This document shows, piece after piece, positions 2,619 through 64,000 of a stretch of DNA of 64,000 nt. The first letter of the stretch is position 1. The number at the start of each line of letters is the position of its first letter. The notes under the pieces were generated by a model, which was not told the origin of the DNA, ran no database searches, and was given only the letters and a program-made list of their open reading frames with translations. The stretch comes from Escherichia phage vB_EcoS_ESCO40. The stretch is from sequence record NC_106514.1. The stretch is one strand, 5' to 3'. Made by a program: the position numbers and the translations under genes.

Positions 2619-3118
2619 ATTTATATTGAATTGAGAGACATTAGTAAAAATTGGTTTTACTAATTTTTCTTGTTTACAATCCGCGATACGGAACAGTTAG
2701 GCTGCCCCATTAAGGGTTGTTTTAACTGTTACGTGTTAGTTTTTAAACAAATAGTTAATAGAATACTTAGCGATCTGCGTCCCATAGGAACCCTGGTAAG
2801 GCCTCGAAGCAACCTAGTATGAGGTGGTTGTGAAGTGAGATGGGAGGAGTGAAAAACTACCGAGACGTGATTCTGTAAGTTATATTGCATCTAGTATGAG
2901 CTAGTATATGAAGCATTAGGTGAGCAAATCTGGCTTAGCGGCCATCCTCAAGGATTTGTGCGGTATAATGAGGCAGCAGCGCAGCGTGAAAGTGGAAGTT
3001 GCCACCCCACTTCAGTATTTGCGATTAATTTGTTGAGAAATTGACAGTAACAGTTGTTCTATTCTTTCTGAATAGTCCTAAAGAAAACTTATTTCATTTC
3101 CAACACAGGAGTATTGTT

Positions 3119-8635: not shown

Positions 8636-9599
8636 TGTAAAAGGCTTTATTAGGCGTTGTCAAGAAGCATATTATCAAGGCATGTCTTTAATCTCTGATG
8701 AGGAGTATGATTGCCTGGTAAAACGCTTCCCGTTAGAAGAAGAGATCGGGCCTAAAGGTGATATTCCACATCTGTATCGTATGTATTCTTTACAGAAAGT
8801 TTATTATAATCGTGGAGATAAACCCCCATTTAACCCCTTAGGTCAGGTAGAAACTGATAAGTTAGATGGTTGTGCAATTTCTCTGTTATATATTAACGGC
8901 GAATTTGTCCAAGCATTAACCCGTGGTAATGGTATTCTAGGGAATGATGTCACAAGCAACGTAAGATTGCTGAACATTCCTAAAAAGATTTCCCAAAAAG
9001 TACCTACTCAAATCACTGGTGAAGTTCTAATTACAAAAGAAGTAGAAAATAAACGTAACTTTGCCTCTGGTGCTATTAACCTCAAAGATAGTGATGATTT
9101 CGTACAACGCATTGGAGAAGGCGGTTTAATCTTTGTTGCTTACGGTATCCAATGTTCTGCTGAATCTGTAGGTATTACAGAAGCATACTTAAAAGATATG
9201 CTTTGGCTAGAGAATGAGAACTTCTTAACAGTTGTTAATGTGCGTTCCTTCTTTAAATGGATTCCGACGGACGGTAAAGTTGTTCGTATTAATGACAACA
9301 ACAAATTCTTCCGTGAAGGCTGGACTAATAAATTCCCTCGTGGAGCATTCGCTATTAAAGAGGATGAAGAAGGCGAAATTACAACTCTTACTAAAGTTGA
9401 ATGGCAGGTAGGGGCTTCTGGTAAAGTAACTCCAGTTGGTTATTTCGAACCGGTAATTATTGATGATGCTACAATTGTTAAGGCGACTCTTAATAACGTT
9501 GATTATATTAACTCTCTCGATCTAGAGATCGGTTGCCAGATTCGAGTGATTCGTGCTGGTGGTGTAATCCCGTGCATAGTAGAGCGAGTATACGATTAA
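8625..9599 (+). CDS. NAD-dependent DNA ligase, N-terminal fragment (Ia-like, adenylation and OB regions)
   Basis: KLDG adenylation motif (KxDG); SDEEYD Ia-like segment; ends where a Zn-finger would follow in an intact LigA. Confidence 0.8.
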   Translation: MMNNVKGFIRRCQEAYYQGMSLISDEEYDCLVKRFPLEEEIGPKGDIPHLYRMYSLQKVYYNRGDKPPFNPLGQVETDKLDGCAISLLYINGEFVQALTRGNGILGNDVTSNVRLLNIPKKISQKVPTQITGEVLITKEVENKRNFASGAINLKDSDDFVQRIGEGGLIFVAYGIQCSAESVGITEAYLKDMLWLENENFLTVVNVRSFFKWIPTDGKVVRINDNNKFFREGWTNKFPRGAFAIKEDEEGEITTLTKVEWQVGASGKVTPVGYFEPVIIDDATIVKATLNNVDYINSLDLEIGCQIRVIRAGGVIPCIVERVYD

Positions 9600-9649
9600 T
9601 ACATAACCCTTTGCTACCCATCTACCATATCGGAATTATAAAGTGGTTA

Positions 9650-9678
9650 TTGACATTTTCGCCGCTTAGGTATATACT
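9650..9678 (+). promoter_or_regulatory. sigma70 consensus-like promoter in the ligase gap
   Basis: TTGACA-17 bp-TATACT. Confidence 0.6.
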
Positions 9679-9742
9679 ATTATCATTCAGTTGAGGGATA
9701 GAAAGTTATGGCGAGGGTAAGCAAAGTTAGTTAAAATTGTAG

Positions 9743-9771
9743 TTGCTAAATGCTTAAATACTTGCTATAAT
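9743..9771 (+). promoter_or_regulatory. T5-type early promoter (P5)
   Basis: TTGCTA-17 bp-TATAAT then ATTTATATAAATTGATAAGGAAG. Confidence 0.75.
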
Positions 9772-9801
9772 ATTTATATAAATTGATAAGGAAGAAATTT
9801 G

Positions 9802-10581
9802 ATGAAAATCGAAATTCCAACACAATGTCCCTCTTGTGGTTCTAAGCTAGATCTTGTCAACGGACAATTATTCTGTCGTAATAAGTCCAACTGTCCAGCG
9901 CAATCAAGTAAGTTAATTGAGAACTTCTGTACAAAAATGAAGTTAAAGGGCTTTGGCCCGAAAACTATTGAGAAGCTGGAGCTGACGAAGATTTCAGAAC
10001 TATTTTACCTAACCGAAGAAGATTTGGTTAGAGCCGTGGGTAGCAAGGTTGCCGCTAAGTTAATTAGCGAATTAAATACTAAAGTTCGCGGAGACATTGA
10101 CTTTGGTTCAGTTCTCGGTTCTTTAGGAATCCCTCTAATTGGAGAGGTTGCAGCAAAGAAATTGTCCCAAAATTGCACCAGTTTTCAAGATGTGAGAGCT
10201 GATGGCAAAGCTGGAGAAAATTATAAAGCCTGGCTAAATTCCCCACAAGGCAAGGATGTTATCGAATTACCGTGGAAATTCACAACTGGTATTAAAGGTG
10301 CTAAAGCTGGGGTCATCATTACTGATGGTCTAGTAGCCCAGCCAAATGGAATCACGGTGTGTATTACCGGGTCTTTGCAAGATTTTGCAAATAGAACGGA
10401 TGCAACAAATTATTTAGAAGGTCTAGGGTATACTGTTAAAAAATCAGTTACCAAAGACGTTAAATACCTAATCTGTGAGGATGAATCGAAGCGTTCTTCC
10501 TCATCTTATAAGAAAGCCGAAACGAATGGGATAGAAATCCTGTCGATTAAAGAACTATTGGAGAAAAATAATAATGTCTAA
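9802..10581 (+). CDS. NAD-dependent DNA ligase, C-terminal fragment (Zn finger, HhH, BRCT-like)
   Basis: CPSCGS...CRNKSNC zinc finger at N-terminus; ITGSL BRCT-like segment; TAAGGAAG RBS 8 nt upstream. Confidence 0.75.
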   Translation: MKIEIPTQCPSCGSKLDLVNGQLFCRNKSNCPAQSSKLIENFCTKMKLKGFGPKTIEKLELTKISELFYLTEEDLVRAVGSKVAAKLISELNTKVRGDIDFGSVLGSLGIPLIGEVAAKKLSQNCTSFQDVRADGKAGENYKAWLNSPQGKDVIELPWKFTTGIKGAKAGVIITDGLVAQPNGITVCITGSLQDFANRTDATNYLEGLGYTVKKSVTKDVKYLICEDESKRSSSSYKKAETNGIEILSIKELLEKNNNV

Positions 10582-21452: not shown

Positions 21453-23271
21453 GACACTAAAATTTAGTAACGTTATGTCTTACGGTAAGGACATCGTAAT
21501 TCATTTCGATAAGAATCCAGTTACTCAACTAATTGGTGGCAATGGGCTAGGGAAATCCACCATCGCTACGGTTATCGAGGAATTGTTTTATAACAAGAAC
21601 TCTCGAGGTATCAAGAAGGATGCTCTATTCTCCTGGGCTTCTCCGAAGAAAGAATACGATATGCACGCTTACTTTTCAAAAGATGATGATGAGTATGAGC
21701 TGCATAAAGTTGTCAAGTCAACTGCTAAAGTAACGTTGATTAAGAATGGGGAAGATATTAGTGGGCACACGGCAACCCAAACATACAAGATGATTGAAGA
21801 GATTATGGGTGGTGACTTTCAAACATTCACCAAACTGATTTATCAATCAGTGGGTTCTAATCTAGATTTTCTAAAAGCAACAGATGCAACACGTAAGGCT
21901 TTTCTTGTTAACTTGTTCAATCAGGAACAATACAAAGAAATGTCGGAAACTATTAAGGCCGACCGTAAAGAAATAGCAAATACCTTAAATAATTTGCAGG
22001 GCCAAATGGCTGTAATTACGAAAATCCTTAATGGAAAAAATAATCTAGGAACTTTGCAGGAACCTGTAGAGGTGCCGGAGTTTGATGAAGAGCCATTAGC
22101 GCAAGAACTTACTGAATCGAAAATTAAGGCGGCATTAGCCAAGTCTCAAGAGGCTAATATTACTAAGTTGCGTAATTTGGACAAAGCTGTACAAGTTGCC
22201 GAACAATCTTTCGAACCTTTCAAAAATTTGCCCGCGCCCACCGACCAAAATGAAGAGATCTCGAGTGTTACGCGTGACCTAACGATTGTGACCTCACGTG
22301 CGAGCGAAGTTAAGAAACGTTATCAGAAGTTCAAGCAAGAGGCTTCGAATACTGAATGCCCTACTTGCGGTACTCATCTAGATACAACTGCTGCTCAAAA
22401 AGCAATGGATATGGCTAGAGTAGAATATGATCCTCTGTTCAAAGAGAAGCAATCTCTTGAAGCTAAGCTAGAACAGTTGAAGAAAGAACAACTTGAGTAC
22501 GTTGCGTATACTAGAGCAAAAGATGCTCTTGATAAAGCGGTGGTAGCTAGAGACGAGTTCAAAAATTCAATGAGTGATGCTTCTTTTGAAGAACTCAATG
22601 TGCAAATCCTACAGGTGCAAATCCGACAATTAGAACAGGCAATCGCTGATGGACGTTCTAAGGTTGCAATTGCCAAAGAGCATAATGCAAATGTAGAATT
22701 AGCCAATGCAAAATATAAAGCAAAGTTAGAACAGATTGAGAAAGCAGAAGCAGAAATGACTGAGATTACTTCCAAACTGAATGGAGTAGCCGAAGCTGTA
22801 GCTGATCTTGATATTCTAATTGCTGCTTTGAAAAATCTGGTGGGGTATAAACTAGAGCATAGTGTGAAAGTATTTGAAGAACTAATTAATAAATACCTTT
22901 CCATTATGACTGGAGGTAAATTCGCACTTGGATTTGAACTGGATGAAACGAAGTTACAAGTAGTAATCTTCAATGATGGAAACCGTACCAGTATGGAGAA
23001 CTGCTCTACTGGTCAGCAAAGTCGAATTAATCTAGCAACCCTGTTAGCTATTCGGATGCTGTTAACATCTATTAGTAAAGTTAATATTAATCTTCTATTC
23101 CTTGATGAAGTAATTAGCTTTATTGATACGAAAGGACTTGATACTCTCGTTGAACTATTAAATGAGGAAGAAAGTCTAAATTCTATCATTGTTTCTCATG
23201 GGCATACGCATCCATTAGCTCATAAGATTACTGTCAAAAAAGATGCAGAAGGATTTTCCTACTTAGAATAA
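21433..23271 (+). CDS. SbcC/Rad50-like ATPase
   Basis: N-terminal Walker A GGNGLGKST, central coiled coil with CPTCG zinc hook, C-terminal LLFLDEVISFID Walker B/D-loop; start taken at ATG 21433 (MSKITIK). Confidence 0.8.
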   Translation: MSKITIKTLKFSNVMSYGKDIVIHFDKNPVTQLIGGNGLGKSTIATVIEELFYNKNSRGIKKDALFSWASPKKEYDMHAYFSKDDDEYELHKVVKSTAKVTLIKNGEDISGHTATQTYKMIEEIMGGDFQTFTKLIYQSVGSNLDFLKATDATRKAFLVNLFNQEQYKEMSETIKADRKEIANTLNNLQGQMAVITKILNGKNNLGTLQEPVEVPEFDEEPLAQELTESKIKAALAKSQEANITKLRNLDKAVQVAEQSFEPFKNLPAPTDQNEEISSVTRDLTIVTSRASEVKKRYQKFKQEASNTECPTCGTHLDTTAAQKAMDMARVEYDPLFKEKQSLEAKLEQLKKEQLEYVAYTRAKDALDKAVVARDEFKNSMSDASFEELNVQILQVQIRQLEQAIADGRSKVAIAKEHNANVELANAKYKAKLEQIEKAEAEMTEITSKLNGVAEAVADLDILIAALKNLVGYKLEHSVKVFEELINKYLSIMTGGKFALGFELDETKLQVVIFNDGNRTSMENCSTGQQSRINLATLLAIRMLLTSISKVNINLLFLDEVISFIDTKGLDTLVELLNEEESLNSIIVSHGHTHPLAHKITVKKDAEGFSYLE

Positions 23272-50514: not shown

Positions 50515-50996
50515 TACTTTTTACCTCCAGTAGCTAGGGAAGTAATTAAGTCCATGTAGTTTTGGTCCCCAGCTCCAGCAATAATGTTATTCTGGATATT
50601 GGTCTGATTAGCAGGAGCACGGACAGCAGCTTTAGCTTTCTCTAACTCTACCATCATCTTCATTTCTTCCATCTTCATTTTGTGTGCCTTCCAGAGAATA
50701 TCCATAATATCTTGGTCAGAACCCATGCCAGTTTCTTCTAGCTCTTCTAGCTTACGCTTAATAACCTCATCTAGAACACCAAATAAACGATCCCTATTAC
50801 GGAATCCACTCTCCATAAAAATATCGTTTAAGTAGTTCTTAACTTCACTACGATTCATAATATCTCGAAAAGCAATTTCGGACATTCCAAGGCTACGTGC
50901 GGCAGAAGGCACATCGCTACCACACTGTAAATAAGCTTCAATCACATCCATCCCTTCAGGGGACATAAGATCTGGTACTAATACATCATTTGCCAT
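50514..50996 (-). CDS. putative terminase small subunit / DNA-binding protein
   Basis: 160 aa immediately upstream of terminase large subunit; HTH-like [16 protein letters not shown]. Confidence 0.4.
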
Positions 50997-54434: not shown

Positions 54435-54554
54435 TTAGCACTAAAATGACTTTTGCCAAATTTCATAAGATTACACATGGAGGTGTGCTCACTGCCTCCG
54501 GCGAAAATACTTAGTCTCCTAACCGCCACCCCCGTTACTATTACTCTGCTAACT

Positions 54555-54591
54555 GTTTCACCCTGCAACCATTTTAATTGCAAGGTGAAAC
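54555..54591. terminator. long hairpin between convergent genes
   Basis: 14-bp stem GTTTCACCCTGCAA/TTGCAAGGTGAAAC (one mismatch) with 9-nt loop; no clear U-tract. Confidence 0.35.
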
Positions 54592-54608
54592 AATTTCAAC
54601 TTTAATTG

Positions 54609-55343
54609 TTAGGCAACTTTTAATTTCTCGATGTACTGTTGCGGGCTGCAACTATATTCTGCGCGTTCTTCCTCGGTCATACTTTCCCAGCATAATTTTA
54701 AACGGTCGGCTAGAAATTGATAATCATTATCATCCTCAAGAGATTCATCAATAAAGGTTTCACCTATCAATGTGACACCGATTGATAGAATATCGTTAAT
54801 AGCTTGCGCGTCCAGCGTTTTAAATCCGTATGATGCCGCCGCTGATAGCACGCCTTTATGATCATCAATCATAGTAAAATCAGCGTTCGGATAAAGCTGT
54901 TTAAATAACTCAAAGTAATGGCTTTTATATATAGCGTCTTTACTGTGGTATATTTCGCTAACTTTATCAGCTTCAAAATATTTGTGCAGTGTATCGCGGG
55001 AAAATACGCGGATATTACTATCCCCACGCCCTCGCAGTCCTTGCTTGCGTAGGTAATAATAATCGGACTTGCTCATCAGTCGAGCGGTGCAGATAATGTT
55101 TAACGTGTTAACGTCATTCATACATTGGCGCATATATGTAACAAGCGGCAAGAGTGTATCTTGCATTATTAAATCGTGTTTACATGCTTCATTCTTGTAC
55201 TTATTTAGATCTAGATTGCCGTCGCTATCAAAGCAAGGCGCTACGCGATGGAATGAATTAACGATAGTGCCATCTAGATCCCAAATCATGACGCGGGAAA
55301 TATGCGGGAAATTACGGGTAATATTCGTTTTAACTTGATTCAT
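54609..55343 (-). CDS. dmp: HAD-family deoxyribonucleoside 5'-monophosphatase-like protein
   Basis: 244 aa; MIWDLDGTI HAD motif I; position next to A2-like and A1-like genes. Confidence 0.6.
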   Translation of the reverse strand: MNQVKTNITRNFPHISRVMIWDLDGTIVNSFHRVAPCFDSDGNLDLNKYKNEACKHDLIMQDTLLPLVTYMRQCMNDVNTLNIICTARLMSKSDYYYLRKQGLRGRGDSNIRVFSRDTLHKYFEADKVSEIYHSKDAIYKSHYFELFKQLYPNADFTMIDDHKGVLSAAASYGFKTLDAQAINDILSIGVTLIGETFIDESLEDDNDYQFLADRLKLCWESMTEEERAEYSCSPQQYIEKLKVA

Positions 55344-55417
55344 TTTGTTACGTTCTCCTTTTAAGGGATTAAATTAAATTAATCCAGCCCACTGGATGGG
55401 CTGGACTATTCCAGCTA

Positions 55418-55813
55418 TCAAAGACCATAAGCCAACGCATCGGCGATGACGGTAATATCCTCGCCCGATACATCGGAACGAATGCCCGCGCATGTAAATA
55501 CCTTCGCACTCATTAGCTGATCATCCAGACAAGCGGGGCAAGGCGCGACAACTGCGAAAGCTAAACCTGATTTTACGGCGTCGATGATAGTCGTTTCCTG
55601 CTTCACTGTGTCAATATAAACGCCTTTCGCCTTGATGCGGCTGGATAGTTTGCCCGTGGTATAGGCGAAAGTCGTGATCTGTAGCGCCTCGTTAAACTCG
55701 ATTAAATCATCGACAACGTGACCGGCCTCAACGTGATACCGCTCACCATTTGAATAAACTAGGACGATGGAAGAACGAGCGCGATCGAATGGAATACGGT
55801 TAGAAATAGCCAT
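55418..55813 (-). CDS. pre-early protein, A2-like
   Basis: 131 aa; assignment by size and position between dmp-like and A1-like genes. Confidence 0.4.
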   Translation of the reverse strand: MAISNRIPFDRARSSIVLVYSNGERYHVEAGHVVDDLIEFNEALQITTFAYTTGKLSSRIKAKGVYIDTVKQETTIIDAVKSGLAFAVVAPCPACLDDQLMSAKVFTCAGIRSDVSGEDITVIADALAYGL

Positions 55814-55885
55814 GTTTATAGCTCCAATTAATTTAATAAACTTTTATAGCGGCTATATTTCAAGCCGCCAACCTGATTTATTGGC

Positions 55886-57559
55886 TTACTGTACAAAAAA
55901 TTTGCCGTTCTTAAAGTCGATCAAAGTGCGCTGGCCGTTCGCATAGGTAATAACATGCGTTTGCGTCCAGCTCGACGCGCCAACGTTATAGCCCATGTCC
56001 AGACTACCAGATACGCCAGCGGTATAAACGCCGCCGTAAATGCTGGCGGTGTGAGTGTGCCCCGTGTTTAATTTGCCCAATTTCTTAAATTGCTTCGGAT
56101 TGCCACGGCTCCCGTTAATGCCATTGTGACCGTGTACACCGCACTCAATGCCTGCAATCTTGAAAGATTGATCAGTGGTCAGGAAAATAGCGTTAAATTC
56201 ACAACCTGCAACCTTGCGCAGCGCATAATCCAGCACGTTGAAAGTATCGTCTTTTTCTGCAATAGCTCCGTAAATCGCAGCATTAAGGCGGTGATATAGT
56301 TCCGCGTTGGCTGGATCGTCTTTAATGTTAGCATTACGATCATCAAGCCAACGGGATAACGCCAGATCATGGTTAGATTCAACAATGATCGTTTGAGCAA
56401 AATCGCGCTCCATTGATTCCAGTACGCGCCCGGTATCGATAAGGTCATCCAGAACTTTATCACGTCCGGCGGCGTATTGTTTTGCTAGGAATACACCAGA
56501 AGCGCGGTTGTGATGATTGCGCGATGTAAAATCATGCACGTCATGCACGAATTGATATTTTGGTTTAAGAATATCAACAAGCCCGTAGGTATCACCATGC
56601 CCCCACGACGCAGCGGCGCACTCCTCATCCAATTTTTCGGCGTGTATGTCGCCATATTGCAAGCCTAAAACATGATCGGACGTTTCAAAGCATCCGGCGG
56701 GAGTGGCGCAAATATTCAAATCGTAAAACATGCCGCTTTCGTCCATCGTTTCAAGCTGGCGAACAAAAAATTCACCGTCCTCGTCAAACTCAACAATCAG
56801 CGCACCAAAATTATGTAGCGCCTCGGCCTTTTGCCCTGCCTTTTGCTGAATGTAGTTTTTGAGCGTTGCCGTTCCGGTCGAGTACATACGGCGCACTACT
56901 TCACCTTTTAAAGCTGGGACGCTTTCGGCGGTGATTTTAGCCGCTCCAATTGCCAGACCTTCCAGATTAAGCGCGGTTGCAGTTTCAGCGAATCCAGAAA
57001 GCGGATAATCTGCAGTTGGTAACACGTTAATCTCAGCCATGAAAGCAAAACGGCGATTATTCAAAAACACGTTTTTATTGCAGATATATTTATCAAACGC
57101 AGAATCATATTTGATTCCGTCCGCGCCCTCACCATTTTGAAAACCGTTTTTATTATAAATATACTTGCTAACCAGCAAATCAGCGCCAATAAATTGGGCA
57201 TATTGTTCAAGCGAGGATAAAAAGTTTTTATGCGGGAAAGTATTATTCTGAATCGATGTAATAATAAAGCGTTTACCTTGTTTTACTTCCCAGCTTTCCA
57301 CCGTGCTAGAAATAACTCCAGCGGCTTCAGGGCGGTCATCGTTTTTAATAGCTTTTACAGTTTTTGCCGCTTTTGGTTTCGCTGGTTTATTTGCTTCCAG
57401 CCAATCACAAATAGCGGTGGAATGCTTTGGAGTATCGTAAACCATTTTAGAAATATCGTCACATACTTCCAATTTAGTGGCGCGCAGACGTTTACCATAG
57501 AAATTAAAGTCAGCGGCCATTTTCAGGATAACGGTTTGTTTTTCTGCGGAAATAATCAT
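55886..57559 (-). CDS. A1: pre-early protein A1-like (metallophosphoesterase-type)
   Basis: 557 aa; calcineurin-like motifs GDIHAE, GHGD, NHD, GHTH in the C-terminal half; position and size match T5 A1. Confidence 0.6.
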   Translation of the reverse strand: MIISAEKQTVILKMAADFNFYGKRLRATKLEVCDDISKMVYDTPKHSTAICDWLEANKPAKPKAAKTVKAIKNDDRPEAAGVISSTVESWEVKQGKRFIITSIQNNTFPHKNFLSSLEQYAQFIGADLLVSKYIYNKNGFQNGEGADGIKYDSAFDKYICNKNVFLNNRRFAFMAEINVLPTADYPLSGFAETATALNLEGLAIGAAKITAESVPALKGEVVRRMYSTGTATLKNYIQQKAGQKAEALHNFGALIVEFDEDGEFFVRQLETMDESGMFYDLNICATPAGCFETSDHVLGLQYGDIHAEKLDEECAAASWGHGDTYGLVDILKPKYQFVHDVHDFTSRNHHNRASGVFLAKQYAAGRDKVLDDLIDTGRVLESMERDFAQTIIVESNHDLALSRWLDDRNANIKDDPANAELYHRLNAAIYGAIAEKDDTFNVLDYALRKVAGCEFNAIFLTTDQSFKIAGIECGVHGHNGINGSRGNPKQFKKLGKLNTGHTHTASIYGGVYTAGVSGSLDMGYNVGASSWTQTHVITYANGQRTLIDFKNGKFFVQ

Positions 57560-57655
57560 AGTAATAAAACTCCATTAAAGGGATTAAAAACGTTTGTTAT
57601 TGGCAATATTGCCAGATATAACGCCGCAAATGAGTGGCGTTATAATTTGCAACAT

Positions 57656-57853
57656 TTAACTAATAGGCATTAGGCTGGCACTAACCCCACAAGCAACGGC
57701 GGCGATTAAGCAAAGTAAACCCAACCGCCTTGCTAAATTAGCCTTGCGTTTAAAATAATATGAATCCAGATCATTTTGAAAATAAGCAAACAATAATGAG
57801 GCGGCCATAATAAATAAGCCTAGAATGAGGGATTCAGTAGGGTAAAAGATCAT
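57656..57853 (-). CDS. small membrane protein (65 aa)
   Basis: Two hydrophobic segments (LILGLFIMAASLLFAYF and LGLLCLIAAVACGVSASLM). Confidence 0.5.
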   Translation of the reverse strand: MIFYPTESLILGLFIMAASLLFAYFQNDLDSYYFKRKANLARRLGLLCLIAAVACGVSASLMPIS

Positions 57854-57909
57854 TTTAAAACTCCAGTCAAAGGGAAATTATAGTGGGGAATAATCCCCAC
57901 TAATTAAAT

Positions 57910-58326
57910 TTATTCGCCAGCGGCTTGTTTTACTTCATCGGCAACGCCTAACAGTTGCGCCACGGCGTCCAGCGTTTCCAATTTTGCACTTTCCAGCGAG
58001 GCCAGATCATCGGCGTCTTTGATAATACCGGAATCGATCGCATGTTTTGCAATAACGCGCACATAATGCGCTTTACGAATGGAACTACCGCCGCCAACCT
58101 TGCGAGGTTTATCGCTTTTCTGATACGCTTTCGCGCTGGTCAATTTTGAGCGAACAGACACGGGAGAAGTCGCGCCAACTGTTTTAGCAATCTCTTTCAG
58201 GCCGTCGCTGTTGGCGAACTCTAATCCATTTTCATTGATTAGCTGTTGATACATAGTAACAGCCTGTTGGGTGTTTTCTTCATTCCATGCGAATTTTGCA
58301 GATTTTTCGGTTTTAACGTTAGCCAT
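57910..58326 (-). CDS. hypothetical protein (138 aa)
   Basis: ORF in the leftward pre-early operon; no motif recognised. Confidence 0.5.
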   Translation of the reverse strand: MANVKTEKSAKFAWNEENTQQAVTMYQQLINENGLEFANSDGLKEIAKTVGATSPVSVRSKLTSAKAYQKSDKPRKVGGGSSIRKAHYVRVIAKHAIDSGIIKDADDLASLESAKLETLDAVAQLLGVADEVKQAAGE

Positions 58327-58422
58327 GATTATAACTCCTATTGAATTAATTTAAGGGATAAGATTAACATAATGTTAATCGTTATATCCCCCGAACTACT
58401 GGGGGATATAAAAGTAACACTA

Positions 58423-58674
58423 TTACGCTACAGCTTCAAATTTTTCGTTCCGCTGGACAACCTTTACAACGTCGCCGGATTTAACCCGAACGTTATAAAT
58501 AGTTTTCCCGTTGTTACTCCGTTCCGTTTCAGCATATACCGCATCAATCACATCGAACGGCATAAGCGCCGCGCCTTTGATGCGTTCGGCCTTTCCAGTT
58601 GCCTCATCCGTTTTAGTAACGAAAGGAATAAAAACGGATTGACCAATTTTAGGCGCGGTAATAACGTTTTTCAT
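58423..58674 (-). CDS. hypothetical protein (83 aa)
   Basis: ORF in the leftward pre-early operon. Confidence 0.45.
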   Translation of the reverse strand: MKNVITAPKIGQSVFIPFVTKTDEATGKAERIKGAALMPFDVIDAVYAETERSNNGKTIYNVRVKSGDVVKVVQRNEKFEAVA

Positions 58675-58901
58675 AGTATAAACTCCTAGTTATTTGGGGA
58701 TTGTTCCGCATTACCTGCTAGAAAGTAGCAGGTAATAAGAAAAAATCCGCTCGCCAATATAATCAATTTAAAGAACTCCACTCAGGCCGCTATATCCCAG
58801 TTAGGGGGCGGGACACATTATGGTAAGTGCCGACCGTCAAATTGTATCAAGTTATCGCTCTTATCGAACTGGGTACATCTTAAAGCCTATCGGCTAGGGT
58901 G

Positions 58902-59105
58902 TCAAACAATTTTTTGCAGTTTTTTATGATTTTCTTTCAGGTCAATCATAATATTTCGCCAGATCATTTCCAGACCTTGCTGGCGGCCTTTCTTGTACTG
59001 CGTGAATCTATATCTTACGGATTGTTGAGCTATTGTCAACAATTTTTTAGTATTGCCATCCAATTTTTTGGCTGGTTTACCAGTTATCAAAAGCGTTTGT
59101 TTCAT
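58902..59105 (-). CDS. hypothetical basic protein (67 aa)
   Basis: Lys/Arg-rich ORF; AAGGA RBS 9 nt upstream on the minus strand. Confidence 0.45.
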   Translation of the reverse strand: MKQTLLITGKPAKKLDGNTKKLLTIAQQSVRYRFTQYKKGRQQGLEMIWRNIMIDLKENHKKLQKIV

Positions 59106-59725
59106 ATCTGCGATTCCTTATATAATTGATAAGTTTACCGCCGATAGACTTTAAGATATACCCAATTTTTAAAGAGCGCGGCGGTAAACTTCCCGCCGTT
59201 GTAGTCCGTTGCCGTCCTACGAGATAAATAATAGCAAATACCAAAAATGGCGCAACCTTATTTTTGTAAAGAAACGTAAAGAAAGCAACACGTCCGGCGT
59301 TCACCTAAGTTTAAAGGAAACGGGCGCGCGAATACCACAAAACACAGCAGATAGGCAAGTAATTTTTTCATTTATATTTGCCTTGCCCTACTTGACAAAA
59401 CTTAAAAAGCTCAAGGCGACGATAAACGGCTTATCCCTTTATGATGGCATACCTGAAAATTTTACCGCTTTCTAGGACGTTTTAGGCGGCTTATTTTCGA
59501 CTTAACAAATATTTAACAAAAGCAAAATTGAAAAATAGTTTGAAAAGATATTGACTTTTTAAAATCAAGATTAAACGAGTTATTTTATAAAATTAATTAA
59601 TTGACTTTTATTTGACGTTGTGTATTAGAAAGATAGCAGACTAATAATTGCTAGGATGATAATCATGCTGGTGGATTGTAACAGCCTGAACTATTAGCAG
59701 ACTATTAATCACGGAAAATCTCATT

Positions 59726-59754
59726 AGCCAACTAACTATTTCCTGAGTTATAAT
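59726..59754 (+). promoter_or_regulatory. promoter-like element with T5-type downstream leader (P10)
   Basis: TATAAT followed by ATAAGCATAAATTAATGAGAT matching the conserved leader of the early promoters; weak -35 (AGCCAA). Confidence 0.45.
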
Positions 59755-59805
59755 ATAAGCATAAATTAATGAGATAATAATAATTATAAGAAATCGTAAC
59801 CAATA

Positions 59806-59897
59806 GAAATAATAACTATAAAAATAATAACTATAAAAATAATAACTATAAAAATAATAACTATAAAAATAATAACTATAAAAATAATAACTATAAG
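59806..59897. repeat. 15-bp tandem repeat, about 6 copies
   Basis: AATAACTATAAAAAT repeated head to tail. Confidence 0.9.
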
Positions 59898-59934
59898 AAA
59901 CTATCGGCCTAAGTGAGAACCACTATCATTTAAG

Positions 59935-59943
59935 TTATCCACA
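59935..59943 (+). promoter_or_regulatory. DnaA box (perfect 9-mer)
   Basis: TTATCCACA. Confidence 0.5.
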
Positions 59944-59994
59944 AGTTTATTAACAGCACTTTTTGACTTGACACGATAGGCGGCGATATAAGGG

Positions 59995-60044
59995 CTTATC
60001 CACAGACTTATCCACAGGTTATCCTACTGTATAAATATACAGGG
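59995..60044 (+). promoter_or_regulatory. composite element A: two tandem DnaA boxes plus a LexA-box-like palindrome
   Basis: TTATCCACA at 59996-60004 and 60008-60016, then TACTGTATAAATATACAGGG (CTGT-N8-ACAG) at 60025-60044. Confidence 0.55.
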
Positions 60045-60308
60045 TAGAAAGGTAGTGTTAACAACTGCAATCAATTTTAAGCGGCCTAAATCGCTTTCTA
60101 ACGAGCTAAATGCAGTGGGGTAATATTAAAGTAAAGCCTTCACCCGCCGCCCTGGTGGCTTCGCCGTGTTTTGCTCTTTACTATACCGCTGCGCGGTTAG
60201 CATAAAACTAGGCGTTAGGCAAGGAAAATAAAAAGGTAAAATAATATTTGCCCCTAGAAAGAAAATACCCTTATCATTCACTCACCGATTAACGAGGGAG
60301 TCCAACAA

Positions 60309-61286
60309 ATGAGGCTGTATAAACCAGATAATGCCACCGTCTTAAAAGGTGCGCTGCGCAACCTGCTGGACGGTAGCAGAACAACCAGCATTAAGCACTT
60401 TGTTAACAAGGCCGAAGATATTCACCAAAATTTTTTTGATGATTTCGATGCCTATGATATGAGTAGTTTTTTGCAATTGTATAAGCAAGGGGCAACGCTT
60501 GTTTTGTATAATCGAGATAATCACCTGCTTACTAGTAGGGGGCCGGATACTGATTTTATAATTGTAAAAGGTAGCACAGTAAAAGCCTATGACACTGGGG
60601 CGGGCTTAGAAGTTTTTTCAATAGAAAACTATGAAGCCAACCCCAATGATCTTTATGACGTTGAAAACTTTCTTGATTCATTTTGGCGTTATTTATCAGT
60701 TGGCTGGAATCGGTCAATTGGTGACGGTTATCGTCTGGCGGCTGTAATGGCTTTTGATGATGATGGCAATTTTTTGCTACCGTCGGAAATATACCCTTAC
60801 GTATATGATGGGGATATAGAAAGCGCGGGCTTTTCTTTCTGGAAGGAGGAAGATCAGCCTATTGACAATATAGAAAAACATGCGGTAAATTCTAACGCTC
60901 AAACCATTGAAAACAAAGGAAAAAATACCATGACCAAGATCGCTAATATCGTTGCCGCTAATAAGTCTGCCGTTGTAAATGCTGCAAAATTGGAAGCGGG
61001 TAAAATTGCACTGACTCAAATCACGAAAGTAGCGGCTAAAAAAGCGCCGTTTATGATTAAAGGCTATATTGATACGCCTATCGGTCGGGTAGTGATTGCT
61101 AACCTGCTTAGCGTGGTGGTTGACCAGTATGCCCCTAGCAACCAGAAAGCGAAAGCGGTAGCGGGTGCAGCTATGGAAGCGGCTATGTTAGAAATGGTGC
61201 AAAGTTTTAACATTGCTGAAATGATTGACGAAATGGTGAAAGGTATTGATATTTCTACTTTTACCGTTAACACCGAAAACGAGTAA
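60309..61286 (+). CDS. hypothetical protein (325 aa)
   Basis: GAGGGAG RBS 9 nt upstream; no motif recognised; first gene of the rightward cassette. Confidence 0.6.
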   Translation: MRLYKPDNATVLKGALRNLLDGSRTTSIKHFVNKAEDIHQNFFDDFDAYDMSSFLQLYKQGATLVLYNRDNHLLTSRGPDTDFIIVKGSTVKAYDTGAGLEVFSIENYEANPNDLYDVENFLDSFWRYLSVGWNRSIGDGYRLAAVMAFDDDGNFLLPSEIYPYVYDGDIESAGFSFWKEEDQPIDNIEKHAVNSNAQTIENKGKNTMTKIANIVAANKSAVVNAAKLEAGKIALTQITKVAAKKAPFMIKGYIDTPIGRVVIANLLSVVVDQYAPSNQKAKAVAGAAMEAAMLEMVQSFNIAEMIDEMVKGIDISTFTVNTENE

Positions 61287-61313
61287 TAGTTAACCTAGTG
61301 TAAAGTTTTGTAA

Positions 61314-61340
61314 AGGTCGCCATAATCGGCGGCCTTTTTT
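61314..61340 (+). terminator. intrinsic terminator
   Basis: GGTCGCC/GGCGGCC hairpin (one G-U pair) followed by TTTTTT. Confidence 0.6.
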
Positions 61341-61348
61341 GTTATAAT
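61340..61348 (+). promoter_or_regulatory. extended -10 promoter element
   Basis: TGTTATAAT (TGn-TATAAT) directly after the terminator T-tract. Confidence 0.4.
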
Positions 61349-61405
61349 GCCTTTACACCAAAACGGTGGATTGAAAATTTTCCCAAAAAATTTTGGAGGC
61401 TTAAA

Positions 61406-61636
61406 ATGGTTGCTTACTCTTCTTCTGACGCTCTTTTCACTGGAAAAGGCTGGGTATCAAATCGCTGGATCATTCAAGAAATGGTGCAAGAATATGGCAT
61501 TGCTAAAACTTACACTACCATTCAGGCGCTTTATGATAATGATCAAATCGATCAGCAAACGGCGGGCTTTTTGCTGGATACCCTAAAAGCGGAACATTGT
61601 ACTAAAAAACAAGCCGCAAAAATTATTTTAATGTAA
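61406..61636 (+). CDS. hypothetical protein (76 aa)
   Basis: GGAGG RBS 7 nt before ATG. Confidence 0.55.
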   Translation: MVAYSSSDALFTGKGWVSNRWIIQEMVQEYGIAKTYTTIQALYDNDQIDQQTAGFLLDTLKAEHCTKKQAAKIILM

Positions 61637-61682
61637 TTAATAACGGGGCGTTATTTTCGCCCCGCTAACTAGGAGAATGAAA

Positions 61683-61832
61683 ATGGTTATTTTTCGAGCT
61701 ATTCTGGCGGGTATCTTGGGCGCTATTTTATCACTTTTTGCCATAGCTTTCGGCGTTCACGCGGTTATTGTTGGCGCGGGTATCGCTGTATTTTCTTATC
61801 TGCTGGGCTGCATGACTAGTAAAGGAGAATAA
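61683..61832 (+). CDS. small membrane protein (49 aa)
   Basis: AGGAG 7 nt upstream; almost entirely hydrophobic (two predicted helices); not in the ORF track because it is under 60 aa. Confidence 0.45.
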   Translation: MVIFRAILAGILGAILSLFAIAFGVHAVIVGAGIAVFSYLLGCMTSKGE

Positions 61833-61834
61833 AA

Positions 61835-62047
61835 ATGATTCGTAACGTTTCCCTTGCTCGTTCAAAGGGTTTTAGGCTGGTGGACGTTAACACGTTCGAG
61901 CGGGAAGACTGTAAAATCGAATATGTAGCACGGAATAAAAACGCCTTCCGTGTTACAGAAAAGAAATTCGATAAGCGCGGCAACGTGATCGCTGAAACGG
62001 TTAAATATTTTGCCACCTTTTACGCTGCGTTTCGTGGGGTACTATGA
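61835..62047 (+). CDS. hypothetical protein (70 aa)
   Basis: AAGGAGAA RBS; Lys/Arg-rich. Confidence 0.55.
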   Translation: MIRNVSLARSKGFRLVDVNTFEREDCKIEYVARNKNAFRVTEKKFDKRGNVIAETVKYFATFYAAFRGVL

Positions 62048-62178
62048 AAAACGTTATTATTATTATTATCCTTGCAATGGTTGGCGGTTTTACCGCCACC
62101 TTGTTTAAGAATGACCCCCTTTTACTGGGGGTTTTTATGCTTTTATCAGGCTATCTGATCGGGAGGATATGCAAATGA
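62044..62178 (+). CDS. small membrane protein (44 aa)
   Basis: Start overlaps upstream stop (ATGA); hydrophobic VIIIIILAMVGGFTATLF and LLLGVFMLLSGYLIG; under 60 aa. Confidence 0.4.
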   Translation: MKNVIIIIILAMVGGFTATLFKNDPLLLGVFMLLSGYLIGRICK

Positions 62179-62519
62179 TCATTTACGAGGGCAATCGTTT
62201 TGTTACTAATTGCCGCCCAGCATTATTAGCAAACTATTTAAACCAGCTTTCGCCAGCTTATAAGGGCGTTATTAATATTTATGAAGGCAAGGCGCACTAT
62301 AAAATCAATGCGGTCGTTGCCCGTGAACTAGCGTTTCAATTTTTGACCTTTGCATCTTGCGACGTTCAGGTTATGGGTGAGGCATTAATCGCAGAAAATG
62401 AAGATGATTTTATTAATATTTTCCGTAAGGTGTGCACCGAGCGCCTGATAATGAAAGGCGCATATATTCAATCCACGGCTGATAGTATTGAAACAGCGTT
62501 TCGAAAGGTGGCGCAATGA
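62169..62519 (+). CDS. hypothetical protein (116 aa)
   Basis: GGGAGG RBS upstream; no motif recognised. Confidence 0.55.
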   Translation: MQMIIYEGNRFVTNCRPALLANYLNQLSPAYKGVINIYEGKAHYKINAVVARELAFQFLTFASCDVQVMGEALIAENEDDFINIFRKVCTERLIMKGAYIQSTADSIETAFRKVAQ

Positions 62520-62611
62520 GATTATATATTTTCGCGGGCAATGTTGAGGCTGCAAATGATTCCGCTGGTGGCGATAACGTTCGCCACTACTGGCAAAAAT
62601 ATATTTACTAG
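62516..62611 (+). CDS. hypothetical small protein (31 aa)
   Basis: Start overlaps upstream stop (ATGA), fills an otherwise empty 100-bp gap. Confidence 0.3.
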   Translation: MRLYIFAGNVEAANDSAGGDNVRHYWQKYIY

Positions 62612-62619
62612 GGGTTACT

Positions 62620-62814
62620 ATGAGCAATAAAATTATTGTGACCAAAACCACCACAACGGTTGACGTTTTTTATGTGCCCGATACGCCGGAAAACCGGCAA
62701 GCGGTCGAACGTGGTGAATATGATAGCGTAATTTATGACGCTGATGGTTATTATCAGCATTTGGTCGATTCCTATGGGGAAGAGGAGAAGATCACGCATC
62801 AATTACCAGACTGA
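62620..62814 (+). CDS. small acidic protein (64 aa)
   Basis: About 14 Asp/Glu against about 5 Lys/Arg; last gene before a terminator. Confidence 0.55.
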   Translation: MSNKIIVTKTTTTVDVFYVPDTPENRQAVERGEYDSVIYDADGYYQHLVDSYGEEEKITHQLPD

Positions 62815-62820
62815 CAACAA

Positions 62821-62844
62821 ACGGGGAGCAGATCCCCGTTTTTC
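62821..62844 (+). terminator. intrinsic terminator
   Basis: ACGGGGA-GCAGA-TCCCCGT hairpin followed by TTTTCAC. Confidence 0.7.
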
Positions 62845-62954
62845 ACACCTGCAACCAGATAACCCCTTGTTTTAGTATCCCCGCCAAAATTAAACGCGTT
62901 AGAATGCGATCTAGGACGTTTTAAGCCTATATTAGAATTATTCACTGCATAGGA

Positions 62955-63064
62955 ATACTGTATAAATATACAGTAGAATAACCTGGGGATAAGTCTGTGG
63001 ATAACGCTTCAAAATGGCTAGGATTCTGTCAAGGCAAATCGTGCTGTTGATAAGTCTGTGGATA
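62955..63064 (-). promoter_or_regulatory. composite element B: LexA-box-like palindrome plus two DnaA boxes, inverted relative to element A
   Basis: TACTGTATAAATATACAGTA at 62955-62974 (one mismatch to the SOS-box consensus as recalled); TGTGGATAA at 62995-63003 and 63056-63064. Confidence 0.55.
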
Positions 63065-63093
63065 ACCTAAATAACAGTGTTTCTCACTTCCAT

Positions 63094-63290
63094 TCTTAAA
63101 TGAGAATCATTATCATTCGCATTCCACTATCTAACCGATAATCATTTCCTTTCTTAAATGAGAATCATTTCACTTTTTGAATAGTTCTCATTCTCTTTCT
63201 TAAATGAGAATCAATCTCATTTCATTTTCTAAATGCGAATTATTATCATTCTCATTCCGCTTTTTAAATGATAATGATTCTCATTATCAT
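63094..63290. repeat. array of about 5 AT-rich direct repeats (TCTTAAATGAGAATCAT-type)
   Basis: Copies at about 63094, 63153, 63198, 63227 and 63262; the last contains GATAATGATTCTCATTATC, 17 of 19 matches to the Fur-box consensus as recalled. Confidence 0.7.
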
Positions 63291-63328
63291 TCGCATTCAG
63301 GCGAGCAGGGCAATTGCCCTGCGCTTTT

Positions 63329-63929
63329 GTGCAAATCCGACAATTGCTCCAAGGGTTACGTGCTGGCGTGTATGTGCAAATCCGACAATTTTTGGTAGTG
63401 TGCAAATCCGACCCGAAAAATTTTTATAGTGTGCGAATCCGACAATGAATTTTCCTAAAAACTCCAGCAATCACGAACTGCGTTCGAATCCTGTGGGATA
63501 TGTGCAAATCCGACACGGTTTTTCTAGGATTAAGATGTGCGAATCCGATGAAGTTTTTGTGAGTTCGATTGGAAGGTGTGTGATTGTATGGGTTTGTGGA
63601 GAAGGTGAGAGAGCGAGAGAAATTTGGTGGGCTAGAAGGATGTGGTCGCAGGATTGGTGTGGAGCACCTGGTTTGCGGGGATTTTGGGGAAGAGTTGAGA
63701 TAATTTGGGGAAATTTGAGATAGGTGCAGAAAAAGTAAAATTTTATTAGCAAAATGGGGCAAAATAGCTTGACAAGTGAAAATTCTTGTGGCTCTAAAAA
63801 CTCAGGCAATCATGGGCCTTCGGCCCGAAATAATGCTGCTATTTTCAGGAGAGTAAGAGTTCCTAAAAACTTAGGCGTTTGTGCAAATCCGACCATAAAT
63901 TTCTAGAAACACAATGTGCGAATCCGACA
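63329..63929 (+). repeat. eight dispersed direct copies of a 14-bp motif GTGC(A/G)AATCCGA(C/T)
   Basis: Copies at 63329, 63374, 63400, 63431, 63502, 63537, 63881 and 63916, all in the same orientation, each followed within 12 nt by a T-run. Confidence 0.85.
63575..63730 (+). other. G+T-rich strand-asymmetric tract
   Basis: About 150 nt almost devoid of C on the plus strand (GGTGTGTGATTGTATGGGTTTGTGGAGAAGGTGAGAGAGCGAGAG...). Confidence 0.7.
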
Positions 63930-63970
63930 GTAATTTCTGGAAATGTGTTTTCAAAAAATGTCTTCTAGAA

Positions 63971-64000
63971 ATAACCGCCCTCCCTATAACCGCCCTCCCT
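63971..64000 (+). repeat. 15-bp direct repeat, 2 copies, at window edge
   Basis: ATAACCGCCCTCCCT twice in tandem. Confidence 0.8.

Follow-up and report, generated by a model that had tools for sequence, protein, structure and literature searches.

The direct repeat D array of a T5-like phage straddles the end of the terminal repeat and is a candidate binding zone for the pre-early protein A2

Results

Eight repeats of a single orientation are homologous to direct repeat D of T5

The DNA analysed here is a 64-kb stretch (the window) from Escherichia phage vB_EcoS_ESCO40. A pattern search of the window found eight copies of GTGCRAATCCGAY between positions 63329 and 63928, all with 0 mismatches and all on the + strand, where ~0 would be expected by chance; the eight same-strand copies reported by the initial annotation are thus borne out. 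They lie at 63329–63341 (copy 1, GTGCAAATCCGAC), 63374–63386 (copy 2), 63400–63412 (copy 3), 63431–63443 (copy 4, the G variant), 63502–63514 (copy 5), 63537–63549 (copy 6, GTGCGAATCCGAT), 63881–63893 (copy 7) and 63916–63928 (copy 8), with start-to-start distances of 45, 26, 31, 71, 35, 344 and 35 bp. When ≤2 mismatches were allowed, 12 matches were observed against a mean of 2.8 in dinucleotide-preserving shuffles of the entire 64-kb window, and no shuffle reached 12; 8 of the 12 are the exact copies, packed into 600 bp. The same GTGCRAATCCGAY family was returned independently by a repeat finder.

Positions 62800–64000 match 446 phage records, the best being those of Escherichia phages BF23 and T5, both of the genus Tequintavirus. 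Identity over this 1.2 kb is 92.7% with BF23 and 88.7% with T5 (T5 positions 9264–10421), so that alignment with the T5 injection-stop region, proposed at the outset as a check, gave a positive answer. By sequence, the window is that of a T5-like phage closest to BF23. In T5 record AY587007 the homologous positions are annotated as copies 1–9 of “direct repeat D” (DRD; 9672–10409). Copy 1 there starts 4 bp past “major single-stranded nick 1, 7.9%” and palindrome J, and copies 6 and 7 lie on either side of the left terminal repeat's end at 10139. Each of these features recurs in the window. The eight exact GTGCRAATCCGAY copies have the sequences found in T5 and BF23 (DRD consensus TGTGCAAATCCGAC, with A/G and C/T variants) and stand in the same order, in the interval between the last pre-early and the first early gene. 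Copy 1 directly follows palindrome J and the 7.9% nick motif, 6 copies fall within the terminal repeat and 2 past its end, and the orientation is single throughout. Spacing in T5 (46, 26, 31, 81, 25, 344 and 35 bp) is nearly the same. The two arrays differ by point changes only, the A/G and C/T variants falling in other copies, and in the spacing of copies 4-5-6, which is 71/35 in the window, as in BF23, and 81/25 in T5. The end of the window at 64000 truncates the array ahead of copy 9, which in T5 lies 137 bp past copy 8.

On this alignment the repeats of the window are DRD copies 1–8 of T5, homologous copy for copy, and their recovery here is a rediscovery of a catalogued element. The description “iss-like” holds to the extent that T5 record AY543070 labels 9140–10149, spanning copies 1–6, as “injection stop signal (iss)”; what does not hold is any suggestion that the repeats are new. 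DRD is listed in “Repeat Region 3”, the injection-stop region of T5 (Davison 2020, bioRxiv 10.1101/866236), and for the iss region a 2026 PNAS paper cites Heusterspreute et al. 1987. According to papers from 2023 and 2026, there is no functional study of DRD repeats and second-step transfer is poorly understood. A literature search with the motif string gave nothing relevant.

Beyond the array, good copies recur in the window only as an isolated tandem pair on the + strand at 22600–22627 (starts 22600 and 22615), within a D13/SbcC-like gene; they correspond to T5 copies 11–12. T5 copy 10 lies in ORF019, outside the window. The pair is absent from the D13 homologue of Klebsiella phages, in which this segment of the protein has diverged, and on that ground we rejected it as a second functional site. 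It is probably a coding coincidence or a trait of a single lineage, outside the DRD system.

The array is effectively non-coding and lacks terminator structure

Mechanically called ORFs of 50–112 aa do overlap the array, contrary to the earlier statement that no ORF covers it. They are intact in merely 1–3 of 23 aligned relatives, and the region is therefore effectively non-coding, in which sense the statement stands. It also has the look of untranscribed DNA. ARAGORN found no tRNA in the array, and Rfam gave no significant match there, returning one at chance level. A tRNA-like or other RNA element was rejected on these results; the motif does resemble a tRNA T-loop.

Across 71 copies from 8 phage lineages, the site, ~16 bp long, has the extended consensus (A)TGTGCRAATCCGAY(R), with a weak TT(T) after it. 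The T enrichment is position-specific, with 66% T at 6–7 nt past the motif; TTTT occurs ≤20 nt from the motif in 48% of these copies, and TTT in 70%. In the window, TTTT lies ≤12 nt downstream of copies 2–6 only. Copies 7 and 8 are followed by TTT only; the TTTT of copy 1 sits upstream, and no T-run lies downstream of that copy. The claim that TTTT follows every copy within ~12 nt is therefore correct for five of the eight and incorrect for copies 1, 7 and 8.

Each motif with its T-run had been suggested to form a short pause or termination signal for RNA polymerase, and the weak T enrichment is in keeping with this. The units do not, however, have the G+C-rich hairpin and U-run of an intrinsic terminator: no hairpin common to the DRD units was found, and TTTT is missing at 3/8 copies. 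A pattern scan detected no promoter or terminator within the array, the sole terminator pattern being palindrome J, just before copy 1. In addition, an intrinsic terminator annotated in both T5 and BF23 already follows the last pre-early ORF, ~500 bp upstream of the array, and the genes flanking the non-coding region are convergent. We consider a transcriptional role of this kind highly improbable.

The array spans the boundary between the terminal repeat and unique DNA

From left to right, the region consists of the terminator, a near-perfect LexA-type palindrome, DnaA boxes, a Fur-box-like repeat block that is A+T-rich and G-poor, and palindrome J with the nick motif. Then come DRD copies 1–6, a G-rich gap, the terminus of the repeat, DRD copies 7–8 and, at the window edge, a C-rich 15-bp tandem repeat. 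The LexA box matches at 19/20 positions, there are 2 perfect and 2 variant DnaA boxes, and the best Fur box scores 18/19, with 10 matches of ≥14/19 against 0.04 in shuffles. The nick motif CCCTGCGC (63317–63324) falls inside palindrome J (63305–63322) and is homologous to the major single-strand interruption of T5 at 7.9%, which AY543070 puts on the minus strand; the array begins 4 bp further on, at the point by which first-step-transfer DNA is delimited. CCCTGCGC is also present at T5 nicks 2 and 3, and a variant of it at nick 4.

The junctions at the T5 and BF23 termini, used as BLAST queries on the window, located a single copy of the terminal repeat, the DNA of first-step transfer, at 54486–63794 (+ strand). 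A single copy identifies the assembly as concatemer-type or permuted. Homology with T5 and BF23 puts the repeat's right end at 63794|63795, where it closes the ~230-bp gap between the DRD clusters (63560–63794, + strand), which is G-rich and C-poor (G 36%, C 7.2%). Because this end falls in the inter-cluster gap, the array straddles the boundary between terminal repeat and unique DNA. The repeat end is 257 nt past the start of copy 6, the last one inside, and 87 nt ahead of the start of copy 7, the first one outside. The array had been placed at the edge of the pre-early region, and that placement is too simple, the repeats continuing beyond the terminal repeat into unique DNA.

A place for the repeats within the stop signal itself, the cis-acting site where transfer halts pending synthesis of A1 and A2, is putative. 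Published proposals put the stop signal proper left of the 7.9% shear point, in inverted repeats containing DnaA boxes, and the DRD copies start to the right of it. In T5 they begin ~50 bp right of the nominal 9618-bp stop, a figure that is merely 7.9% of the genome length.

DnaA boxes, A+T-rich repeats and direct repeats succeed one another here in the order of an iteron origin, which raises the question of whether the DRD copies are replication-origin iterons bound by a phage initiator. The likeness to the iterons of P1, F, RK2 and the lambda origin extends to the position of direct repeats beside DnaA boxes and an A+T-rich block. The window also encodes a helicase (3041–5908) with a Herpes_ori_bp match, resembling the herpesvirus origin-binding protein, and the reverse complement of the G variant (ATTCGCAC) bears what we take to be a resemblance to the herpes UL9 box GTTCGCAC. 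Origin iterons, though, have regular, helically phased spacing; the DRD copies are spaced irregularly and out of helical phase (45, 26, 31, 71, 35 and 344 bp), differently in each lineage. No gene for an initiator adjoins the array. Within the helicase, the Herpes_ori_bp and PDB matches are confined to the N-terminal helicase part and leave out the DNA-binding domain, and a herpes-type origin-binding protein was rejected for this reason. Finally, electron microscopy cited in the Davison preprint (bioRxiv 10.1101/866236) puts the T5 origins elsewhere, near the middle of the genome. An origin function seems to us quite unlikely.

The motif is conserved across Demerecviridae while its surroundings turn over

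In an alignment of 23 distinct sequences from Markadamsvirinae, 55% of motif columns are invariant, compared with 23% of spacer columns (Mann-Whitney p = 4e-9). The same motif, in the same orientation, is present in Klebsiella phages (Sugarlandvirus), Pantoea phage AAS21 and Pectobacterium phages My1 and DU_PP_V, and the hosts of phages with a motif array include Escherichia/Salmonella, Klebsiella, Pantoea, Pectobacterium and Vibrio; in a Proteus phage the array is degenerate. Between subfamilies the flanks are unalignable and copy number and spacing differ, whereas motif and orientation are kept. Because it is the motif that persists as flanks, spacing and copy number vary, each DRD unit is probably the binding site of one sequence-specific protein, a reading that the initial annotation had also put forward and that the comparison fits.

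A common layout is kept within Demerecviridae: CCCTGCGC, 4 bp, the first DRD copy, the inner cluster, a gap and the outer cluster. The nick motif, the 4 bp and the first copy together form the most deeply conserved piece of the array, shared by Klebsiella, Pantoea, Vibrio and Proteus phages. Vibrio phage Gary, whose A1 protein is merely ~31% identical, has in T5 orientation LexA-like palindromes, DnaA boxes, short repeats, CCTGCGC, 4 bp and GTGCAAATCCGAC, followed by ~5 further copies, the repeat boundary given in its record and then 3 copies. In Proteus phage 1 the motif at first seemed missing; inspection by eye revealed CCCTGCGC, 4 bp and GTGCGTAATCGAC, then degenerate units of the AAATCCGA type, so that this phage has one good DRD copy plus degenerate ones. 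Rhizobium phage Paso, which encodes an A1 homologue among its replication genes, has no DRD motif. In a collection of viral contigs, close pairs of the motif occur only in contigs of 96–123 kb, and all those examined are T5-like.

The depth of conservation of the nick motif and first copy would be expected if the array directs a nicking enzyme to the major interruption beside copy 1, and T5 copies 11–12 lie 370 bp downstream of nick 4. Against such targeting, a single copy would suffice, and the copy 11–12 pair is the one missing in Klebsiella phages. T5 nicks 2 and 3 have the same CCCTGCGC with no DRD nearby; the array is therefore not needed for nicking, and we rejected nick targeting as its main role. 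It is a very doubtful explanation.

A second possibility raised by the comparison is that the repeats are sites for a conserved host DNA-binding protein, which would either hold the incoming DNA, and so constitute the stop itself, or be titrated by it. Near-consensus LexA, DnaA and Fur boxes lie immediately upstream, and the DnaA boxes, LexA-like boxes and DRD motif are unchanged in the Vibrio phage, as targets of conserved host proteins should be. To our knowledge the DRD motif matches no host-factor consensus. A scan for motif arrays found none in Enterobacterales chromosomes. One scan of 596 Gb of bacterial genomes yielded essentially no arrays: of 4 loci, 1 is contamination by a T5-like phage and 3 are unrelated tandem repeats, and host chromosomal DRD arrays were rejected accordingly. 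A host-factor role is unlikely, if less so than an origin or nicking function.

Stated genome termini fall between the inner and outer clusters

Wherever a terminus is stated, the end of the terminal repeat falls between the inner and the outer cluster. This is the case in T5, in BF23 (PhageTerm), in 7 further contigs that carry both repeats, in My1, in Gary and in a 123-kb contig whose array matches those of Klebsiella (Sugarlandvirus) phages; some of the records were probably copied from T5, and chee24 and saus132 put the boundary just after copy 6. This arrangement is the main argument for a pac-like role, in which DRD clusters flank the right-end cut of the concatemer, and a packaging protein, either the small terminase or a partner of it, would bind to each side so as to present the cut and orient packaging. 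All copies share a single orientation, and for all their turnover, copies have been retained to either side of the terminus. Since injection begins with the left end, packaging should begin with the right, with copies 1–6 adjoining the initiating end, and the inner cluster would be the first to enter the head.

The layout of DRD resembles pac of P1 and of SPP1, where polar short repeats (the hexamers of P1; pacL and pacR of SPP1) likewise flank the genome-end site in two clusters. DRD differs in that its clusters are 250–600 bp apart and the distance to the cut varies; moreover, terminase binding to DRD is putative, and the putative reading helix of the small terminase does not track the motif. 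The SRL and SRR arrays of T7, whose function is unknown, are similar as same-orientation short repeats that adjoin the boundary of a direct terminal repeat. They differ in sequence and phage family, and T7 has arrays at both boundaries in place of one array straddling one. Repeats next to a terminus-forming cut, as at pac and cos sites, are indeed what is found here, several of the termini possibly having been copied from T5.

Several observations weigh against a pac-like marker. The candidate binder in the window is the product of the terminase small subunit gene (50517–50996, – strand; PHROG 3802, E = 1e-90), and its putative recognition helix, in the stretch that we assign to a helix-turn-helix, is wholly different from that of Gary, though the motif is common to both phages. 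The distance from terminus to nearest copy ranges from 6 to ~250 nt. Another conserved block, GGGGCAAAA..TTGACAAnTGAAAA, which in T5 and My1 lies 14–16 nt from the terminus, is the stronger candidate terminase site; a similar block occurs in the Proteus phage. A pattern search of the window found no DRD copies near the left terminus. The common synteny could be inherited and not selected, and many database termini were probably copied from T5. We regard a pac-like marker as improbable on balance, yet as the foremost of the alternatives.

A2 is a candidate binder acting when DNA transfer restarts

The reading that we favor, at a probability of roughly one in three, is that the array consists of binding sites for A2, a pre-early DNA-binding protein, and acts when DNA transfer restarts. 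The A2 gene of the window, encoding the candidate trans-acting factor, lies at 57910–58326 on the – strand; it belongs to a PHROG annotated “DNA binding protein”, and its homologues are named A2. A2 is described as a DNA-binding dimer, essential and associated with A1, that is needed only for second-step transfer, and no target of the dimer has been reported (Davison preprint, bioRxiv 10.1101/866236). In the mechanism that we envisage, A1 and A2 would be made once the leading 8% of the genome is inside the cell, and A2 would load on the same-orientation DRD sites just past the stall point. Successive binding of A2 would then release or pull the stalled DNA, and transfer would resume. The array would on this account be a restart zone and not the stop, which would be formed by the host-factor boxes just upstream.

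Three considerations suggest the link to A2: position, parallel conservation and the lack of another reported target. The A2 proteins of T5-like, Proteus and Vibrio phages, at ~41–42% overall identity, share a candidate recognition helix, S/A-V-R-S/T-K-L ... Y-x-K, and the constancy of this predicted helix appears to parallel that of the DNA motif. The putative helix-turn-helix of the small terminase, by comparison, differs between this phage and Gary, which has the motif. The structural model of A2 is all-helical (pLDDT 82) and has no PDB match better than E = 1. With no significant fold match for the model, our assignment of the DNA-reading surface is a guess.

Four findings count against A2 binding at restart. 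The DRD copies lie beyond the nominal shear point and may be outside the cytoplasm when transfer stops. The two-cluster layout, with the terminus in the gap, is not predicted by a simple restart or ratchet model. Copies 1–6 also occur within the right terminal repeat, where a restart role is unneeded. And the Proteus phage encodes an A2 that is 41% identical, yet has one good DRD copy and degenerate ones. A profile test in that phage, which keeps a degenerate array, showed neither A2 (41%) nor the small terminase (50%) to be unusually diverged.

Discussion

Two features of T5 have long been puzzling: the stop of its DNA after 8% has entered, with the subsequent restart, and the cutting of its 10-kb terminal repeats. 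In papers up to 2026, none of the repeats in the T5 injection-stop region is reported to have been put to a functional test. Three elements are shared from E. coli to Vibrio phages: the nick motif with the first DRD copy, the polarity of the sites, and the pair of clusters on either side of the genome end. They are therefore obvious targets for mutation and for binding assays with A2 and the small terminase. A role for A2, or at the terminus, would if shown address a long-standing T5 question.

Weighing the readings together, we rank a restart zone bound by A2 first, a pac-like marker second, sites for a conserved host factor third and the remaining alternatives after these. The initial annotation had singled out the right region and was probably correct that its repeats are binding sites; they are not new and not terminators, and a role in the stop signal is putative.

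A broader and still tentative formulation, to which we give slightly less credence than to A2 binding as such, is that the array is a cis element of two-step transfer. It might be a loading zone for A2, possibly with A1, or a virion-bound site that ties the length of the first step to the end of the repeat. If true, this would give a question dating from the 1960s a mechanism, one that is family-wide down to Vibrio phages. In T5, the repeat ends ~520 bp past the nominal stop, the figure for the stop being imprecise, and ~520 bp is presumably about one tail length of DNA.

Strand composition and Fur-box-like repeats

The base composition of the strand is strongly skewed, in opposite senses, on the two sides of DRD copies 1-6. 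The left block (63084-63300) contains 7.8% G and 42% T. In the right block (63560-63794), C falls to 7.2% and G makes up 36%, and the unit TTTGGGG, which corresponds to T5 'direct repeat A', recurs. At 63096-63294 lie A+T-rich AATGAGAATCATT repeats that resemble Fur boxes. The best match is at 63270-63288, and GATAATGAGAATCATTATC agrees with the 19-bp Fur consensus at 18 of 19 positions. Ten matches of at least 14/19 fall within 320 bp, as opposed to 0.04 in shuffled sequences, and an additional Fur-box-like sequence is located near the terminal repeat's left end, at 54713-54737. The T5 receptor, FhuA, is Fur-regulated. The repeats that occupy this place in the Vibrio phage differ from the Fur-box-like repeats, and the Fur-like boxes are therefore lineage-specific.

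Within the A+T-rich repeat block, residues 63179-63256 share 77-81% identity with Escherichia phages of approximately 150 kb, among them Mt1B1_P17, ESCO5 and anhysbys, whose genome size clearly sets them apart from T5-like phages. In one such record, the matching sequence falls within an annotated repeat_region.

LexA-like palindromes

Position 62956-62975 carries a LexA-like box, TACTGTATAAATATACAGTA, which agrees with 19 of the 20 positions in the LexA SOS-box consensus and corresponds to T5 'palindrome D', within the IRC/IRD inverted repeats. A second copy, at 60025-60044, agrees with 17 of the 20. The Vibrio, Proteus and Pectobacterium phages carry palindromes resembling this box beside their DnaA boxes. 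Neither Fur nor LexA is mentioned in Davison's preprint (bioRxiv 10.1101/866236).

Repeats in and after the DRD array

Three copies of CTAAAAACTCNNGC(AATCA) were found, at 63455-63473, 63794-63812 and 63863-63876, one of which begins at the base where the terminal repeat ends. DRD copies 5-6 lie in a segment (63501-63548) that is duplicated, with 77% identity, in the one containing copies 7-8 (63880-63927). Further to the right, two units of ATAACCGCCCTCCCT form a perfect tandem repeat (63971-64000) that extends past the end of the window. The equivalent place in Proteus phage 1 is also occupied by tandem repeats, but there are about 10 of them, they are 15-18 bp in length, and their sequence differs from ATAACCGCCCTCCCT.

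The DRD 13-mer, GTGCAAATCCGA(C/T), also occurs as the core of short tandem repeats of 22-29 bp in unrelated bacterial contigs, as revealed by a scan of 596 Gb. These metagenome-assembled or genome contigs derive from an alphaproteobacterium, the cyanobacterium Phormidesmis and a member of the Bacteroidales, and the repeats map to 553-600, 789-840 and 355-515 in comparison loci L063, L064 and L065, respectively. In a search space of this size, their presence is probably due to chance.

The right terminus and nick sites

A block of the form GGGGCAAAA..(G)CTTGACAAnTGAAAA is present at approximately 63755-63800 in the window and in two comparison loci (L033, ~2330-2385; L061, ~3340-3365, minus strand). 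In T5 and Pectobacterium phage My1 it lies 14-16 nt ahead of the right terminus, and Proteus phage 1 has a block that resembles it. We consider it a candidate terminase cut-site signal; it also looks like a -35 element.

Comparison of T5 loci L001, L003 and L004 identified an extended sequence, CCCTGCGCTCTCC.AG.AAC, common to nicks 2 and 3, and a TTACGYG-like element that follows nicks 1, 2 and 4, 20-45 nt downstream. These sequences may belong to the site that the nickase recognizes. Existing annotations could offer a clue to which enzyme introduces the T5 nicks: a small terminase homologue in MT577844.1 is labelled 'similar to nicking site-specific endonuclease', and in Proteus phage 1 a separate 'putative nicking site-specific endonuclease' is annotated between the terminase and portal genes (locus L070, 4022-4558).
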